A stretch of DNA of 23,792 bases, from contig JAVCBY010000086.1 in assembly GCA_037917625.1 (NCBI GenBank), forward strand, positions 1 through 23,792, in the 5' to 3' direction. Shown one piece after another: positions 1 to 6,785 of the stretch (position 1 is its first letter; the number at the start of each line of letters is the position of its first letter). Source of the stretch: Thermoproteota archaeon. Lineage in GTDB: Archaea; Korarchaeota; Korarchaeia; Korarchaeales; Korarchaeaceae. Below the pieces are notes generated by a model. The model searched no databases, was not told the DNA's origin, and saw only the letters and a program-made list of their open reading frames with translations. Position numbers and translations under genes: made by a program.

Positions 1-88
1 CCTTAGATGAGAGAAAAAATGAGAGTAGTGAGGCCACAGTGGTCTTTCCAACTCCTCCCTTCCCGGCTACTATGATCTTAAGTCCCAT
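1..88 (-). CDS. cooC: CO dehydrogenase nickel-insertion ATPase CooC, N-terminal part (runs off window)
   Basis: Not in ORF track. ATG at 88, 5 nt after the cooS stop, reads MGLKIIVAGKGGVGKTTVASLLSFFLSSK, with the deviant Walker A GKGGVGKT of MinD/CooC ATPases. Context directly after cooS. Confidence 0.85.
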   Translation of the reverse strand, partial: MGLKIIVAGKGGVGKTTVASLLSFFLSSK

Positions 89-93
89 AAAGG

Positions 94-2016
94 TCACCCT
101 GGCCAGCCGAGCTTCCTCCTCTTCTCCCTTATGTGCTCTATCATCACTTTAGCAGCTTTCTCCGGATCCGTCTCTACGAAGAACTTACCGCCTACCAAAC
201 TCTCGGCGTCCTTAGTCAGCAACTCCACGATCCTCTTGGAGCCTAGGACTGGAGGCACCGTCCCGAGGTGGACTAAGAGGCCGCTAGCCACGAAGTAGCT
301 ACCTATGCAAACAGCTTTCTCGCTGTACCACTCGGGAGCTGAGCCTGCGGCTGGGAGATCACTAATATCAACTCCTAGGTGATTAGCTAGCGCAGCTAAG
401 GCTATGAGCATCCTACTGCAATCCACACAACTCCCCATGTGGAGGGCTGGAGGTATTCCGAGGGCCTTGCATACCTCCCTCAAACCGGGCCCAGCTAGTT
501 CAGCAGCTTCTGGCTTGAAGAAGCCATGTTTACTCATGGCTATCGCCCAGCAGCCGGTGCCAACGACTAGGATATCGTTAGCTATGAGCTCCTTGGTTAT
601 CGCTACGTGAGAGCTATCTTGCCTCACCTTCGGGTTAGTGCATCCCACGACCCCAGCTATGCCCTTTATCTTGCCGCTCTTGAGGGCGTCCGCCAGGGGC
701 TCCAGGGTCCCCCCTAGTGCAGATAAGATTGCCTCGACGCTGAAGCCGACTACGGCTTCCATCTTCTCCTTCGGTATGAATACTTTCTCCTTCACCCTAT
801 TCTTGAAGTTCTCCACAGCTACCCCGAGTATCTTCTTAGCGCTCTCCCTAGCATTAGCTTTATCGAACTCTATGTGAATAGCTCCCGGTACCTTCGTCTT
901 AGGCTCAGTCGTTATTATCTTCGTGTGGTAGCATGAAGCTACATCCACTAGAGCTGGCATTATGCACTGATAATCCACTATCACAGCCTCTAAAGCTCCG
1001 GTGATTATCGCTAACTCCTGCTGGAGGAAGTTGCCGGCTATCGGGATCCCCAACCTCATCAGCACCTCATTACCAGTGCAACACATCCCGACCACGTTTA
1101 TGCCCTCAGCCCCCACGCTCTTAGCTAATTCTACCATCTCAGGGTCCTTAGCTACCTCAGCTATTTGCATCGATAACAGCGGGTTGTGGCCGTGGACCAT
1201 GACGTTAACTGAATCTTCCCTAAGCACGCCTAAATTAGCCCAGACCCTTATGGGCTTCGGCGTCCCGAACATTACATCGCTGAGGAGGGTAGCCATCATC
1301 GAACCGCTCCAACCATCAGCCAGAGCTGCTCTCAATCCTTGAGCTATCAAATTGAGCGGATCAGCATCTACTCCCATGTGAGTCCTATGCATTATCTCAG
1401 TTACCTCTCTATCTATGGCCCTGGGCGTTATCCCAAGCTTCCTCCACAGCTCCTTCCTCCTCTCAGGGGCATACGCGTTCAAGAACCTAAGGGGTGAATT
1501 ATCAGGCTTACCGAACTCCATCTCAGCTATCTCAACGACCTCCTTAGCTACTTCCGTTATACTCTTTCCCTCAGTCTCTATTCCTAAGGCCTTCGCTATG
1601 CCGAGTAGTTTCTGCTCATCGGCTATCTTGTAATCCTTGGCCCATCCATCCACTATCCCCCTGAAGACTTCCACTATGTCCCTAGCGTGATCGCTGTGGG
1701 AAGCTGCGCCAGCGGCGAGGGACCTCATGAGGTTCCTAGCTACTATCGTATCAGCGCTAGCGCCACATATCCCCTTATCCGGACCGTAGCCGAAGGGATC
1801 TATCCTGCAGGGACCCATGTTGCAGTTCCTGCAGCACACGCCCAACAATCCGAAGCCGCATTGAGGTTGTTGCTTTAGGTACCTGTGCCAAGCGGTCTCG
1901 ACGCCCTCTCTATCAGCTTTCTCAAGCAAAGGTGGGACCGTCGGATCTATCGATGCCTGCTGATAGAACTCCCTCTTAGTAGCCCTCAATACCCTCTCAT
2001 AAACACTCTCCTCCAT
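94..2016 (-). CDS. cooS: Anaerobic Ni-Fe carbon-monoxide dehydrogenase catalytic subunit
   Basis: D/B-cluster QCGFGLLGVCCRNCNMGPC...C; C-cluster ligands HGHNP, GMCCTG, DYQCIM, VVGCTN, GTGC, GSCVD; catalytic His (SHSDH) and Lys (SEKA). SD GGAGGTGA overlaps the cooF stop. Confidence 0.97.
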   Translation of the reverse strand: MEESVYERVLRATKREFYQQASIDPTVPPLLEKADREGVETAWHRYLKQQPQCGFGLLGVCCRNCNMGPCRIDPFGYGPDKGICGASADTIVARNLMRSLAAGAASHSDHARDIVEVFRGIVDGWAKDYKIADEQKLLGIAKALGIETEGKSITEVAKEVVEIAEMEFGKPDNSPLRFLNAYAPERRKELWRKLGITPRAIDREVTEIMHRTHMGVDADPLNLIAQGLRAALADGWSGSMMATLLSDVMFGTPKPIRVWANLGVLREDSVNVMVHGHNPLLSMQIAEVAKDPEMVELAKSVGAEGINVVGMCCTGNEVLMRLGIPIAGNFLQQELAIITGALEAVIVDYQCIMPALVDVASCYHTKIITTEPKTKVPGAIHIEFDKANARESAKKILGVAVENFKNRVKEKVFIPKEKMEAVVGFSVEAILSALGGTLEPLADALKSGKIKGIAGVVGCTNPKVRQDSSHVAITKELIANDILVVGTGCWAIAMSKHGFFKPEAAELAGPGLREVCKALGIPPALHMGSCVDCSRMLIALAALANHLGVDISDLPAAGSAPEWYSEKAVCIGSYFVASGLLVHLGTVPPVLGSKRIVELLTKDAESLVGGKFFVETDPEKAAKVMIEHIREKRRKLGWPG

Positions 2017-2020
2017 AGGG

Positions 2021-2590
2021 TCACCTCCCTATGAGAGAGGGGAAGCCCGAGGATGCCTTCTCGTAGATGACCCCTCCCATTCCTGTTATGAGCTCTAGAG
2101 CCCTCCTCCTCTTCTCCTCCATGAGCAGGTCCTCGGCTCTACCGAACCTGAGGGCGCCCGTTGGGCAGGCCTCGACGCATGCTGGTGGCAGCCCGGCCCT
2201 GAACCTATCGACGCAATGATCACACTTGATCACCTTCCCGACTCCACTGTAACTCGGGTGTCCGAATGGGCAAGCTAGCAAACATGTCCTGCAGCCTATA
2301 CACTTAGAGGGATCTGAGATCACGAATCCCTCATCCGTCTTATGCATCGAGCCAGTAGGGCAGCTCTTAACGCACGGGGCCGGGTCGCAGTGCATACACC
2401 TCATGGGGACGTAAATACCATCAGTCACGACGACGCTCGTCCTGGGCTTGGGCCTAGGTTCCTCAAAGATGGAAGTGTAAATGGACTTGCTCAAGGAATG
2501 CTCAACGGCACAAGCTATCTCGCAGCTCTTACACCCGACGCAACGGGAGGGGTACACATATATTAAGAATTCCTCGAGGGGTTGGGTCAT
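2021..2590 (-). CDS. cooF: CooF-type 4x[4Fe-4S] electron transfer protein
   Basis: CVGCKSCEIAC, CMHCDPAPCVKSCP, CIGCRTCLLACP, CDHC...PACVEACP; lies immediately upstream of cooS. Confidence 0.93.
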   Translation of the reverse strand: MTQPLEEFLIYVYPSRCVGCKSCEIACAVEHSLSKSIYTSIFEEPRPKPRTSVVVTDGIYVPMRCMHCDPAPCVKSCPTGSMHKTDEGFVISDPSKCIGCRTCLLACPFGHPSYSGVGKVIKCDHCVDRFRAGLPPACVEACPTGALRFGRAEDLLMEEKRRRALELITGMGGVIYEKASSGFPSLIGR

Positions 2591-2610
2591 GCGATCCCCT
2601 AGAATAGAGG

Positions 2611-2644
2611 GAATTTACAGAAATTAAACATTCCGAATTTCAGA
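2611..2644 (-). promoter_or_regulatory. cooF promoter (TATA-like TTTAATTT, 2628-2621) flanked by imperfect direct repeats
   Basis: GAATTTACAGA (2611-2621) and GAATTTCAGA (2635-2644) on + flank the TATA-like box about 30 nt upstream of the cooF ATG. Confidence 0.5.
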
Positions 2645-2656
2645 TTTTCATAAGGC

Positions 2657-3778
2657 TCATCTGCCCAATTTTTCCATTGAGGAAAGACGATATTTGTTAA
2701 TAATTGATACTTTAAGTTCCTTATACTTCTCCACGAGCTCCTCGCACTCGGGCGTGAGCCTGACGCCTCCCCTCAGATAACCTCCTCTAGAGCTCGTGAT
2801 CAAATTGAATCCCAAGATACTCTCCATCCTCCTTATCCTCTTGAATATAGATGATGGTGTCACTCCAATAGCTCTCGCTGCTTGACTCAAGCTCCCGAGC
2901 TCTCCTATAAGTGAGAGCAACTCCAGATCCCTCTCGTAAATTTCCTCCCCCTCCTCAGTTATCAACTTAATTGAGGGGACGAGCCTCACTCCCCTCACTC
3001 CTCCTCTCTCGCAACCCTCATCTAATATGCGGACGGCCTCTAGAGGAGGGGGGTTACTTTGATCGGGCGCGTTGAAGGGGCACCTACCCACTCTCCCCTC
3101 CGGATCCAGGTAGAGGAGCTTGCATCCGATCTCGCACCTCGGGCCCTCGATTATCTTGAATGGGAAGTCCCCTTTGAAGGCTATCCTGACATCGTAAATA
3201 CCCATGAACTTCGCTACTCGCCTACCGATCTCCAAACTTCGGTCTGAGGGATCCTCGATCCGGGGTGCCTTGAAGAGAGGAGGGGCTACCCACATCTCCA
3301 AGCCCATATCCTTAGCGAACTCTAGGATCGGGTTCAAATCTTCCTTCGAGCTCCGGAGGAACATGAGCTTCAGGTCAGATCCGTTTGAGATGAGGAACTT
3401 GAGGAGCTCTTTTGAGCTTTTGAAATCTCTCATTGAGGATGAGAACACGAAAATCCTGCTCGCATTGAGGAGAGATTCCCACGCTTTTCTATCAGATCTA
3501 GTCCTTGCGGGGACGAAAACATTGGATCTGAGGCCCCTCTCGATGGGAGCGCTTATCAGAAACGGGAGAGAGGAATGAAGCAGAGGATCTGGGCAGGAGA
3601 AGTGCACCTCGGGCCTATATCCCTCCCCTATGAGTATGTCCAATAGTAACTCCAGGGAGGATCCCTTGAGATAAGTCTCATAAACTCCCTCGCTCCAATT
3701 ACAGTGGGGACAGCTCAAATAACACTTACCAACGGCTCTCACGATGAGATCAACTTCCCTAGATGCTACTAACCCCAA
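2657..3778 (-). CDS. Putative CorR-like regulator: degenerate radical-SAM/twitch-like N-terminus fused to C-terminal ModE/LysR-type winged HTH
   Basis: C19-x3-C23-x2-C26; FSCPDPLLH where GGEP is expected; CEIGC..LDPEGRVGRCP twitch-like segment; C-terminal LLSLIGELGSLSQAARAIGV..SIFKRIRRMESILGFNLITSSRGG..GGVRLT. TTG start with GAGGTGA SD, overlapping the V4R gene by 20 nt. Confidence 0.8.
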   Translation of the reverse strand: MGLVASREVDLIVRAVGKCYLSCPHCNWSEGVYETYLKGSSLELLLDILIGEGYRPEVHFSCPDPLLHSSLPFLISAPIERGLRSNVFVPARTRSDRKAWESLLNASRIFVFSSSMRDFKSSKELLKFLISNGSDLKLMFLRSSKEDLNPILEFAKDMGLEMWVAPPLFKAPRIEDPSDRSLEIGRRVAKFMGIYDVRIAFKGDFPFKIIEGPRCEIGCKLLYLDPEGRVGRCPFNAPDQSNPPPLEAVRILDEGCERGGVRGVRLVPSIKLITEEGEEIYERDLELLSLIGELGSLSQAARAIGVTPSSIFKRIRRMESILGFNLITSSRGGYLRGGVRLTPECEELVEKYKELKVSIINKYRLSSMEKLGR

Positions 3779-4319
3779 TCTCCATCACCTCAGCTGAGAA
3801 TGTGCAGAAATCATTCCCAGTGGCGGCGCAGCTCTCCTCCACTAGGGGGCCGGTCCTTATGCCGAAGATGTCCTCGATCAGCGCTGACAATACGCCAGCT
3901 ACGAAGTGACATACTGGACCCTCTGCTCTCCTCCCCCTGGCCTCGAACGAGTCCCTGACGATTACCTTTATCTTACCTCCGGTCAGCTCTATGCTCCTCA
4001 CCTCACCGAAGCCCAGAGTCGAGAATACATCGCAAGCTATCTCGAAGATCCTCTTCCTCGTCAATCTACCCTCCTTAATTATCTTCATGATCCCCTTTTG
4101 GTTATGCTGCTTCATCATGCGGTAAGCGGAGTAGTAGAGGACGGGTCTCAGGGCCTTCTCACCCATGAGGGCAGATATACCTGACATGAAATCGGCCCAC
4201 CACCTAGTGGACATTATGACTACATCGCGTAAGATGACCTCGGAGAACTCAGGTATATCGACCCTAGCGTAAAGGACGCCCTTCTTATCCGGCCAGTTCC
4301 TCACTTCCCTTAAATACAT
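3759..4319 (-). CDS. V4R-domain protein (CorQ-like sensor)
   Basis: LGFGEV, DSFEA..GPVCHFVAGVLSA..EESCAATGNDFCTF (V4R C/E/C/C metal site). TATA TTTTTAAG about 21 nt upstream, so probably leaderless. Confidence 0.88.
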   Translation of the reverse strand: MYLREVRNWPDKKGVLYARVDIPEFSEVILRDVVIMSTRWWADFMSGISALMGEKALRPVLYYSAYRMMKQHNQKGIMKIIKEGRLTRKRIFEIACDVFSTLGFGEVRSIELTGGKIKVIVRDSFEARGRRAEGPVCHFVAGVLSALIEDIFGIRTGPLVEESCAATGNDFCTFSAEVMEIGVSSI

Positions 4320-4339: not shown

Positions 4340-4486
4340 CTTAAAAAGGTTACTTCACCCGACCGATGGGGATCATATGTAAAAATTTTTTATGAGTTTT
4401 GAGTTAATTAATTATTCAAAGGTGACTCTCCCTCAAACCTTATTGAGGGGGTTGAGGCCCTATGGCTTTATAGTACTGCTACTATA
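4340..4486. promoter_or_regulatory. Divergent promoter region with several inverted repeats
   Basis: Minus TATA 4347-4340; plus TATA TTTATAG 4467-4473. Inverted repeats TTTGA-N13-TCAAA (4398-4420), CCCTCAA-N6-TTGAGGG (4430-4449) and TATAGTA-N4-TACTATA (4469-4486). Confidence 0.55.
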
Positions 4487-4502
4487 TGTCAGAGGCTTCT
4501 GT

Positions 4503-5624
4503 ATGAGGGTCAAGCCTTTCCTCGTCGAGAGGTTCATGAGCTCCTACGAGCACTTAGCTAAATTCAATATAGCTGAGACTTGCGTAGCTCCATTCAAGCT
4601 CAGCGAACTCCTAAATCTGATCGGTAGGGATCTCATTGAGGAGCTAAAGGATTTAGTCTTGGATTACGGTTACACTGAGGGCCTCCCTGAGTTGAGGGAG
4701 GGAATAGCTAAGCTCTACAAGAAGTTAGAGCCCGATGATATCCTCGTAACTAAAGGAGCAATAGATGCAAATTTCCAGGTATTCTACACATTATTGGAGC
4801 CAGGAGATAAAGTAATATCAATTTTTCCTGCTTATCAGCAGCTATACAGTGCGCCTGAATCCTTAGGAGCTGAAGTAGATCTTCTAGAGCTTAAGGAGGA
4901 GGAATCATGGCTCCCAAATCTAGATGAGCTCGAGAGGAAGGTCGATGAGAGGACCAAGTTAGTCGTGATTAATAACCCGCACAATCCGACTGGCAGTTTA
5001 ATGGATGAGAGGACTCTTAGGGAGGTAATAAGGATAGTGGAGGATTCAGGCTCCCGTCTCCTCTGCGATGAATCCTATCATGGCCTCTTCTTGGATGGAA
5101 GCTCAGTCCCATCAGCCGCAGATCTTAGCGAGAGAGTAGTAGTGACCAGATCTTTCTCTAAGCCCCTATCCATGACTGGCTTGAGGCTAGGGTGGATAGC
5201 TACGAGGGATAGAGAGCTAATAGAGGAGATAAAGCTCCGAAGGGATTACATGTCGATAAGCAATAGCGTTCTAGTTGAGAAGATAGCTGCGGAAGCTATG
5301 AAGAATGTCGATAGGATATATGAGAGGAGCCTCCGAATCCTCAAGGGAAACCTATCCGTGTTGAAGCAGCTCATTGAGAGCAGAGATTACTTACACTGGG
5401 TCCCACCCAGAGCTGGTAGCGTGGCTTTCCCAAGGTATGACTTAAATATAGGATCTGAGGAGCTAGCTTTAAGGCTCCTGAAGGAGAAGGGAACATTCTT
5501 AGTCCCCGGATCTTGCTTCGGTATAGAGAGGCACGTTAGGATAGGGTTCGGGGCTAGGCCGGAGATCTTCGAGGAGGGCGTGAGGAGGTTGGGCGAGTTC
5601 TTAGATTCCCTCCAAGGTGGGTAG
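4503..5624 (+). CDS. PLP-dependent aminotransferase class I/II
   Basis: INNPHNPTG, CDESY, SFSKPLSMTGLRLGW (PLP lysine), PGSCFG..HVRIGF. Start moved from 4392 to ATG 4503 on the basis of TATA spacing and the typical MRVKPFLVERF N-terminus. Confidence 0.92.
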   Translation: MRVKPFLVERFMSSYEHLAKFNIAETCVAPFKLSELLNLIGRDLIEELKDLVLDYGYTEGLPELREGIAKLYKKLEPDDILVTKGAIDANFQVFYTLLEPGDKVISIFPAYQQLYSAPESLGAEVDLLELKEEESWLPNLDELERKVDERTKLVVINNPHNPTGSLMDERTLREVIRIVEDSGSRLLCDESYHGLFLDGSSVPSAADLSERVVVTRSFSKPLSMTGLRLGWIATRDRELIEEIKLRRDYMSISNSVLVEKIAAEAMKNVDRIYERSLRILKGNLSVLKQLIESRDYLHWVPPRAGSVAFPRYDLNIGSEELALRLLKEKGTFLVPGSCFGIERHVRIGFGARPEIFEEGVRRLGEFLDSLQGG

Positions 5625-6785
5625 ATGAGATTCTTCAAACTATCTGCCATAACCTCCTTATTCAACGTAGGCTTCTACATAGCTACCTCCTTAATAGTCC
5701 TCTATTTCAGTGATATAGGCATGTCGGAATTTTTGATAGGGCTCGCCATGACATTAGCTCGCTTGAGTTACGGCTTAGCTTCCATGCTCTCCGGGGCTAT
5801 GGCTGATAGGGTGGGAAGGTATTATCCCATGCTGATGGGCTTCCTCCTAGGAGCTATGTCTATGATATTCCTCTCCCTCCTCAGATCTCAGTACTTAGCG
5901 ATCACTATGGTGATATTAGCTTGGATCTCTTACTCTATCTACAGCCCAGCGGCTTTAGCTTTAGTATCGGAGGTCTCCCGAGGGACAGCGACATCTTACG
6001 GTTGGTATTACTTCTTCCTAACTATAGGGCAGATAGTCGGCCAAGCTCTCTCAGGAAATATGATAAAGATAGGAGGTTACGGAGCTGCTTTCATACTCAG
6101 CGGTACCTTGAGCTTGATCTCAGCAGCACTGACTTGGCTCTGGTTCAGGGATGAGGGAGCTAAGGTGAGAGTGAGCTTATTGGAGGACCTTAGGAGGGGA
6201 GTTAGCATATTATTCAGGAACAAGTACCTCAGTTACTTAGCTTTATCCCTATCCCTTCACGGGATAGGGTTCACTATGTCCTTCACATTCATACCTCTAG
6301 TGGCCAGGCTGGATCAGGGGATGGACGAGCCCCAGATAGGATTAGCTCTATCGATCTGGAGCTTCGGGAACTTAATAGCTACAGTTCCCTTGGGGAAGCT
6401 GGCTGATAGGATAGGGGGGAGGGAGATGCTCTTATACCATTTAGCAGCTTCCTCAGCTGTCTGGTGGGTCTACCCATTCCTCAGAAATGAAATATTGATA
6501 TATGCTTTGATGATGATTCAGGGATTCGTTGGGGCCATGGATCTTCCAGCTAGAAGGCTACTGCTCGTAGGAATATCGGAGAAGGAAGTAGCTACAGCTA
6601 TGGGCTCCTTGGATTCGATAACATTCATCTTAAGCTCCTTGGGGAACTTGATGGCAGGTCTCACTTGGTACTTGGGGCACTGGGCCCCCTTCGCCTTTGG
6701 CTGTTTGATAAACACATTGGGCTTATTGATATTGCTGAAGATCGGGAACCCTAGCTCAGAGTTGCGATTCACCTCGCGTTTATAA
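5625..6785 (+). CDS. MFS transporter
   Basis: About 12 hydrophobic segments; motif A GAMADRVGR and GKLADRIGGR; abuts the aminotransferase stop. Confidence 0.92.
   Translation: MRFFKLSAITSLFNVGFYIATSLIVLYFSDIGMSEFLIGLAMTLARLSYGLASMLSGAMADRVGRYYPMLMGFLLGAMSMIFLSLLRSQYLAITMVILAWISYSIYSPAALALVSEVSRGTATSYGWYYFFLTIGQIVGQALSGNMIKIGGYGAAFILSGTLSLISAALTWLWFRDEGAKVRVSLLEDLRRGVSILFRNKYLSYLALSLSLHGIGFTMSFTFIPLVARLDQGMDEPQIGLALSIWSFGNLIATVPLGKLADRIGGREMLLYHLAASSAVWWVYPFLRNEILIYALMMIQGFVGAMDLPARRLLLVGISEKEVATAMGSLDSITFILSSLGNLMAGLTWYLGHWAPFAFGCLINTLGLLILLKIGNPSSELRFTSRL

Follow-up and report, generated by a model that had tools for sequence, protein, structure and literature searches.

The stretch of DNA analysed here, which we call the window, comprises 23,792 nt (positions 1-23,792, forward strand, of contig JAVCBY010000086.1 in assembly GCA_037917625.1) from a Thermoproteota archaeon of the Korarchaeaceae. 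Its minus strand carries five consecutive genes: a V4R-domain gene, a gene for a 373-aa regulator, cooF, cooS and the 5′ end of cooC. The first two are very probably orthologs of CorQ and CorR of Thermococcus onnurineus and would regulate the carbon monoxide dehydrogenase (CODH) genes that follow them. Kim et al. 2015, the first description of CorQR, reportedly named the V4R protein CorQ and the helix-turn-helix (HTH) protein CorR, and we use the names in this sense; PMC6557876 prints them reversed, applying CorQ to the LysR-HTH protein and CorR to the V4R protein. The genes are as follows.

3759..4319, minus strand: corQ-like gene; 186 aa, ATG start; V4R-domain protein (open reading frame (ORF) and Pfam V4R)
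2657..3778, minus strand: corR-like gene; 373 aa, TTG start; homology to T. onnurineus protein P0209 and family profile searches
2021..2590, minus strand: cooF; 189 aa, 4Fe-4S ferredoxin-type subunit; Fer4_11, E 1.7e-23
94..2016, minus strand: cooS; 640 aa, catalytic subunit of the nickel enzyme (Ni-CODH); TIGR01702, E 7.4e-227
1..91, minus strand: 5′ end of cooC; P-loop N-terminus by frame translation, cut by the contig end

A first-pass annotation had placed a V4R gene in overlap with a 373-aa gene directly upstream of cooF-cooS-cooC, and the ORFs, with an overlap of 20 nt, and the domain scans bear this out. The V4R domain of the corQ-like protein scores above the Pfam cut-off (PF02830, E 9.4e-10). 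The TTG assigned to the corR-like gene is the first start codon past an in-frame stop. CooS passes the TIGR01702 cut-off (754 bits against 478), and bases 1-91 match the N-terminus of a 263-aa CooC-like ORF located after cooS in a complete relative (L047).

The CorQ/CorR family and its linkage to CODH genes

Statements from the literature are taken here from excerpts of the papers cited. In T. onnurineus, the transcriptional regulator TON_1016 heads the CODH cluster TON_1016-1031 (PMC2718504, PMC4463584), and CorQR is described as a carbon monoxide (CO)-responsive activator of that cluster (PMC4791640, PMC13077300, PMC6557876). Relatives of the window's regulator were sought exhaustively among 1.84 billion representatives by profile search, which returned 674 proteins at E<=0.001, most of them matching through the HTH alone. 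The full-length matches numbered about 30 clusters, which include proteins of Thermococcus barophilus, a Desulfurococcales metagenome-assembled genome (MAG) and a Nitrososphaerota MAG. A search with the T. barophilus protein led in turn to P0209, a 369-aa protein named by its source as a T. onnurineus winged HTH protein. The window's CorR aligns with P0209 over residues 11-356 (28% identity, E 9e-31), and the two share the same CX3CX2C motif, C-P-N-P position and twitch cysteines. P0209 is 100% identical to an ORF that lies downstream of a V4R gene and upstream of cooF-cooS (L074).

Another close homolog of the window's CorR is assigned by its source to Candidatus Korarchaeum. Linkage to CODH was surveyed in 43 Korarchaeota genomes, which were searched for both CorR and cooS. 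Full-length CorR is present in 13 genomes and a fragment in one more; cooS is present in 20, all 14 CorR genomes are among these, and CorR is found in none of the 23 genomes without cooS. Thirteen korarchaeal loci were examined, 12 with a full-length CorR gene and one with a fragment at a contig edge. CorR directly precedes cooF-cooS in 12 of them, and a V4R gene lies upstream of CorR in 10 of the 11 loci that include upstream DNA. Two genomes, G015 and G028, have cooS at a contig edge. Within the Thermococcaceae, 19 of 97 genomes encode CorR, and the order V4R-CorR-cooF occurs at 19 of 20 loci, with 18 of these reaching cooS; one locus is a 463-bp fragment.

The spacing of the two regulatory genes is conserved as well. 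In 27 of 29 loci, the V4R stop codon falls 8-29 nt ahead of the codon that corresponds to CorR residue 11; in the two others, the V4R gene is frameshifted or the CorR gene is broken. The two genes are thus contiguous or overlapping in both phyla, and corQ and corR are probably co-translated.

By sequence, the pair extends the known CorQ/CorR family by one korarchaeal member and is not a new kind of system. The proposal that it represents a CorQR-like system in a distant archaeal lineage thus holds as far as homology and synteny with T. onnurineus are concerned; it does not hold in treating the radical S-adenosylmethionine (radical-SAM) scaffold described below as special to that lineage, since Thermococcus CorR has it too. 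One finding bears on how the family is detected. According to the excerpted supplement of PMC13077300, CorQR is identified through KEGG K02019, the ModE orthology group. Proteins with only a ModE-like HTH are common in the Korarchaeota, as seen from the HTH-only matches in a profile search of the 43 genomes, and K02019-based detection can collect such unrelated proteins.

A 4.3-kb contig of a MAG labelled 'Thermotogota bacterium' (L043/L059) carries a Thermococcus-like V4R-CorR-cooF-cooS unit, whose CorR shares 59% identity with its T. barophilus counterpart. A binning error is the probable cause, with gene transfer as a possibility.

Fold of CorR and its cysteine sites

CorR consists of two regions.

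2975..3766, minus strand: CorR residues 5-268, radical-SAM core and twitch-like extension; hhalign, AlphaFold2 (AF2) model, Foldseek, VIA-align and ESM Atlas; closest to MoaA
2672..2986, minus strand: C-terminal ModE/LysR-type winged HTH (CorR residues 265-369); HTH_1, TIGR00637, PDB profile search and VIA-align

The match of the 373-aa protein to Pfam Radical_SAM (PF04055) is weak and below threshold (14.5 bits, E 0.041; cut-off 29.5), and a radical-SAM assignment therefore needed further tests. A family alignment (A2) was made of 33 sequences, namely 31 full-length matches, P0004 and the window protein; the shorter matches P0007, P0008, P0021, P0028 and P0034 and the HTH-only matches were omitted. 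When its profile was searched over the window's own genome, it matched an ordinary MoaA gene (E 1.6e-13). This MoaA (310 aa) has both Pfam Radical_SAM (2.1e-35) and Mob_synth_C (7.8e-16), and its presence as a separate gene indicates that CorR is no replacement for MoaA; a 205-aa MoaD/MoaE-like ORF adjoins it in the region 1354-3351 of G000:C41 (L002). In hhalign, the CorR family aligns with this MoaA over 235 columns at a probability of 97.3% (E 1.9e-11), or at 96.0% (E 3.9e-9) with an alignment of 61 sequences, as against just 66.8% (E 5.3e-5) for a SPASM-type radical-SAM protein of the same genome.

Structure prediction gives the same picture. The AF2 model of CorR, built from 61 sequences, has a mean predicted local distance difference test score (pLDDT) of 87.4; an earlier model from five close sequences (pLDDT 54.8) was discarded. 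Foldseek against the PDB places MoaA first (E 1.5e-8), followed by SuiB, viperins, SkfB, DesII, BlsE and anSME; there were 157 matches at E<=0.001, and among the matches listed all are radical-SAM enzymes. VIA-align superposes residues 5-268 of the model on residues 4-329 of the MoaA chain (Z 19.0, 250 residues, root-mean-square deviation 3.9). Its other scores are 18.1 for SuiB, 16.7 for PqqE, 12.9 for BtrN and 11.6 for the twitch enzyme SpeY, with anSME also among the best. In the ESM Atlas, the clusters nearest to residues 1-265 are all Radical_SAM (score 0.96). By Foldseek and VIA-align, the model thus has the partial TIM barrel of radical-SAM enzymes.

SPASM and twitch domains are recognised by a Cys-flanked beta-hairpin that follows the barrel and holds an auxiliary cluster. 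Such a hairpin is found past the barrel in the model: C219, strands 221-224 and 230-232, then C233. Pfam SPASM (PF13186) and Mob_synth_C (PF06463) give no match to CorR at E<=1; these models often fail to detect twitch domains. We conclude that the N-terminal ~265 residues of CorR almost certainly have a radical-SAM-derived fold, as the first-pass annotation had proposed. Because the Thermococcus CorR proteins share the same domain and cysteines, the scaffold is not peculiar to the korarchaeal lineage; MoaA-like radical-SAM ancestry is a trait of the whole CorR family, including the characterised T. onnurineus protein. A search of the literature within reach found no paper that describes CorR as radical SAM or Fe-S related.

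The C-terminal winged HTH, also noted in the first pass, is recognised by Pfam HTH_1 at residues 283-346 (E 1.5e-11) and by ModE_repress TIGR00637 at residues 282-359 (E 1.9e-14, 53.5 bits, below the cut-off of 98.5). Profile search of the PDB gives 2ijl (1.4e-13) and ModE 1b9m (2.3e-9), and VIA-align matches ModE over 99 residues (Z 13.0, 23% identity). The Pfam scan of CorR found neither a molybdate-binding domain nor a LysR substrate-binding domain.

With MoaA as the closest fold and ModE as the closest HTH, CorR might be imagined to regulate molybdenum or tungsten cofactor genes and merely to adjoin the CODH genes. A CorR paralog in genome G037 that lies near a tungsten-type aldehyde:ferredoxin oxidoreductase gene could be taken in the same sense. 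We regard this explanation as hardly credible: CorR occurs solely in cooS-positive genomes (14 of the 20 with cooS, 0 of the 23 without), it stands directly upstream of cooF in two phyla, and it lacks a molybdate-binding domain in the Pfam scan.

Three segments of the N-terminal region hold its motifs.

3701..3724, minus strand: CX3CX2C motif (C19, C23, C26); from sequence, aligned to the radical-SAM cluster motif of MoaA
3584..3598, minus strand: S-C-P-D-P (residues 61-65) replacing the T-G-G-E-P SAM-binding motif; hhalign columns
3011..3136, minus strand: twitch-like auxiliary-cluster segment with C215, C219, beta-hairpin, C233-P234 and C256; sequence, hhalign and AF2 model

These motifs had been read correctly in the first pass: the translation contains C19/C23/C26, SCPDP and C215-x3-C219...C233-P234...C256. 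In the hhalign columns, C62 takes the place of the first glycine of the MoaA GGE motif, and C219 and C233 correspond to the second and third cysteines of the MoaA auxiliary CX2CX13C. The cysteines are not there by chance, judging from their counts across 87 family sequences: C19 is kept in 71, C23 in 68, C26 in 75 and C62 in 77, and at the twitch site C219 and C233 in 86 each, P234 in 85, C256 in 83 and C215 in 21. The N-terminal stretch is missing in 12 of the 87, through internal deletions in six and truncated ORFs in the other six. All eight cysteines, C215 included, are kept in 13 of 13 korarchaeal sequences. The Thermococcaceae proteins have C62, C219, C233 and C256 in 42 of 42 sequences and CX3CX2C in 39, the other three being N-terminally truncated calls; none has C215.

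The SAM-binding signatures have not fared as well. The GGE position reads C-P-[N/D]-P across the family, in line with the degeneracy first noticed in the window, and G-G-E is kept in two of the 87 sequences, the divergent P0037 and P0052, both of which are without CX3CX2C. In radical-SAM enzymes the residue before the last motif cysteine is usually aromatic. In CorR aliphatic residues predominate there (I 25, F 7, V 6, L 6, G 5 and A 4 among the 75 sequences with the motif). The degenerate GGE and the non-aromatic residue argue, without proving it, that CorR has lost SAM binding.

The cysteines of the former SAM site have been lost altogether in one part of the family. The six representatives with an internal deletion of CX3CX2C lack C62 as well and have C215. 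In an IQ-TREE phylogeny, the representatives without CX3CX2C and two metagenome relatives form one clade (support 100/100), alongside the korarchaeal (100/99) and Thermococcaceae (100/100) clades. One contig of the CX3CX2C-less clade (L077) has cooC-cooS-cooF divergent from V4R-CorR, and on two further contigs V4R-CorR or CorR is located beside membrane-hydrogenase subunits. Because C62 is lost together with CX3CX2C, it appears to belong functionally with that site, and the simplest and probable role for it is that of a fourth ligand closing the former SAM site. The existence of a V4R-paired, CODH-linked clade without the motif implies that the CX3CX2C site is dispensable for such a regulator. 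What the clades have in common is the twitch-type site, with three conserved cysteines in Thermococcus and four in Korarchaeota, and its cysteines are the ones kept in every CODH-linked clade; it is therefore the better candidate for the sensing centre, and on these comparisons we consider the universally kept twitch-type cluster more likely than CX3CX2C to have that role.

The same data bear on the possibility that the N-terminal domain is still an active radical-SAM enzyme, one that produces or breaks down a small effector or cleaves SAM as part of signalling. Retention of CX3CX2C in most members and of a complete radical-SAM core with a twitch extension (Z 19.0 to MoaA) would be expected of such an enzyme. 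However, GGE is lost in 85 of the 87 sequences and its two keepers lack CX3CX2C, the residue before the last cysteine is non-aromatic in most members, a CODH-linked clade is entirely without the motif, and the Pfam Radical_SAM score is far under the gathering threshold. We consider residual catalysis very unlikely.

A model for CorQ/CorR and its alternatives

The best overall explanation, and in our judgement a likely one, is that the window encodes a korarchaeal CorQ/CorR, a heme-free regulator of the Ni-CODH operon, in which CorR is built on a non-catalytic Fe-S relic. The ModE/LysR-type winged helix at the C-terminus of CorR would bind the cooF promoter region, and bound CorR would control cooF-cooS-cooC. 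The N-terminal 265 residues would be the relic of a MoaA-like radical-SAM/twitch enzyme that lost its SAM-binding signatures and kept the cysteines for two Fe-S clusters, one at C19, C23 and C26 with C62 as the probable fourth ligand, the other a twitch-type site at C219, C233 and C256, joined in Korarchaeota by C215. Together with its V4R partner CorQ, this domain would act as a non-catalytic Fe-S sensor module, and the signal would be either CO itself or the reducing state created by CO oxidation. For the non-catalytic Fe-S sensor function as such, we see the balance tipped slightly in favour.

It is conceivable to go further and to propose that CorR is the first gas/redox sensor on a radical-SAM relic, in which CO or CO-derived electrons act on the twitch-type auxiliary [4Fe-4S] cluster, the former SAM site is closed by C62, and CorQ transmits or gates the change to the ModE-type DNA-binding domain; archaea would then have a heme-independent route to CO sensing. 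In this detailed form we consider the proposal unlikely, and we are equally doubtful that CO binds directly to a CorR Fe-S cluster. The first-pass suggestion that fared worst in our analysis is that CO is sensed at the open Fe of a three-cysteine CX3CX2C cluster: C62 fits as a fourth ligand, a V4R-paired and CODH-linked clade does without the motif, and the eight korarchaeal cysteines are enough for two fully Cys-ligated clusters, so that an open Fe for CO is not favoured.

Several observations weigh against the explanation we prefer. The G037 paralog (345 aa, P0011 type; L053/L083, C70:24236-25246) has no V4R partner and is found at the distal end of a membrane-bound hydrogenase cluster, 10 kb away from cooF-cooS. 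Three korarchaeal genomes, G026 (L080), G005 (L081) and G002 (L082), have cooF-cooS with neither CorR nor V4R in the 14-18 kb of sequence examined around these genes; the regulator is therefore not obligatory for the operon, and control of CODH in these genomes must differ. The CX3CX2C motif is kept in most family members, so that some radical-SAM chemistry may persist. Finally, in the literature reached, which offers no explanation of heme-free CO sensing by CorQ/CorR, PMC6557876 in its excerpted text assigns sensing to the V4R domain, which would take the place of heme.

This last assignment corresponds to an alternative in which CorQ is the real signal receptor and the Fe-S domain of CorR is merely structural or sets a redox permissive state. 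The V4R partner is indeed conserved, with C137, E149, E161, C164 and C172 invariant among CODH-linked partners (alignment A4, 17 sequences), and it is still paired with CorR in the clade that lost CX3CX2C. The C-terminus of CorQ resembles the V4R part of MsvR (NF053755, E 1.7e-7), and V4R cysteines of MsvR modulate redox-sensitive DNA binding (PMC3729527, in excerpt). A sequence search of the PDB with the V4R protein gave one weak match, MJ1460 (E 0.009). Set against this alternative are the G037 paralog, whose CODH-hydrogenase cluster contains no V4R gene, and the seven to eight cysteines of CorR, whose conservation is far stricter than a purely structural role needs. Thermococcus V4R proteins carry an additional CxxC that is absent in the korarchaeal ones. 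In bacterial sensors of solved structure, the conserved Cys and Glu residues of the V4R domain bind zinc, a metal that is not known to bind CO. We consider CorQ a rather doubtful candidate for the real receptor.

A further possibility is that CorQ/CorR senses redox state or oxygen through its Fe-S clusters, for example by way of the reduced ferredoxin pool, and that CO acts indirectly through CooS and CooF. The eight conserved cysteines of korarchaeal CorR could complete the ligation of two clusters, leaving no open Fe at which a gas might bind, the operon runs on into Hdr-like redox genes in a complete relative, and MsvR offers a precedent for redox sensing by V4R. On the other hand, CorR is strictly linked to cooS and not to redox enzymes generally, and CorQR is described as CO-responsive in the excerpts of citing papers (PMC4791640, PMC13077300, PMC6557876). 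Indirect sensing is possible, although we do not think it likely.

The MoaA-like radical-SAM ancestry of CorR and the conservation of seven to eight of its cysteines provide a testable lead on how archaea sense CO in the absence of heme.

The putative DNA target of CorR would be located between corR and cooF.

2591..2656, minus strand: corR-cooF spacer, candidate cooF promoter and CorR site; 66 bp, with a GAAATTCGGAA block followed by a TTTAATTT (TATA-like) box

The same spacer was compared in 11 related loci, and the GAAATTCGGAA/TTTAATTT block is common to the five closest (the window and L044-L047). The spacer may represent a B recognition element (BRE)/TATA-type core promoter with a possible activator site upstream. 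A palindrome across the cooF TATA region, GAAATT-N10-AATTTC, was considered as an operator and rejected, as it is not conserved in L044 and L045. Another palindrome, GTTTTAAC-N5-GTTAAAAC, lies between corR and the cooF promoter in L048 (perfect) and in L050, L051 and L055 (near-perfect), but the window does not have it; its role may be that of an operator or a terminator. A scan for sigma-70 promoters and terminators gave background-level results, the sigma-70 model being ill-suited to archaea.

Other features of the surroundings can be noted briefly. Divergent from corQ, at 4392-6785 on the plus strand, are genes for an aminotransferase-like protein (410 aa) and an MFS-type transporter (386 aa), and the pair keeps its position beside corQ in three relatives (L045, L046 and L047). 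In L047 (G014:C1, 11664-16500), the region downstream of cooS, which corresponds to sequence beyond the left edge of the window, contains after cooC ORFs for HdrA-like (651 aa), MvhD/polyferredoxin-like (360 aa), HdrC-like (161 aa) and HdrB-like (249 aa) proteins, named from a reading of their translations. The korarchaeal CODH seems to be coupled to an Hdr-type module and not to an energy-converting hydrogenase. In G037, the genes that adjoin the CorR paralog encode GltD-like, CooF-like and aldehyde:ferredoxin oxidoreductase proteins. Scans of the window for tRNA and Rfam families gave no matches.

Comparison with known systems

The closest known system is CorQ/CorR of T. onnurineus NA1. There, as in the window, a V4R gene overlaps a regulator gene of ~370 codons directly upstream of cooF-cooS, and the regulator is homologous over its full length, with the same seven conserved cysteines and a C-terminal winged HTH. 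The korarchaeal CorR proteins differ in belonging to another phylum and to a separate clade (100/99), and in having the eighth cysteine, C215, in 13 of 13 sequences as against 0 of 42 in the Thermococcaceae. Their V4R partners are without the CxxC of the Thermococcus proteins, and where the Thermococcus system has a membrane hydrogenase, the operon of the complete korarchaeal relative continues into Hdr-like genes.

MoaA, a GTP 3',8-cyclase with a C-terminal auxiliary [4Fe-4S] cluster, is the best match to CorR residues 5-268 by both sequence profile and structure. The CX3CX2C motifs align, and C219 and C233 correspond to two of the three auxiliary-cluster cysteines. Unlike MoaA, CorR has C-P-D in place of GGE, leaves the first auxiliary cysteine unaligned, has an extra cysteine at C256, falls below the Pfam Radical_SAM threshold without a Mob_synth_C match, and is fused to a DNA-binding domain. 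That DNA-binding domain resembles the N-terminal domain of ModE and Pfam HTH_1. In ModE and LysR proteins, however, the HTH is N-terminal, whereas in CorR it is C-terminal and is accompanied by neither a molybdate-binding nor a LysR substrate-binding domain.

In terms of function, the counterparts of CorQ/CorR are CooA and RcoM, the bacterial heme sensors of CO, which according to the excerpted literature have the same role as CorQR in CO-responsive control of CODH operons. The domain scans of the pair gave no matches to heme-sensor or CRP-type families, and the candidate cofactors are Fe-S clusters instead. MsvR, a redox regulator of methanogens, has a V4R domain with conserved cysteines that is similar to the C-terminus of CorQ. 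It differs in that its V4R and HTH domains are on one chain, without a radical-SAM-like domain, whereas in CorQ/CorR the two are divided between two proteins.

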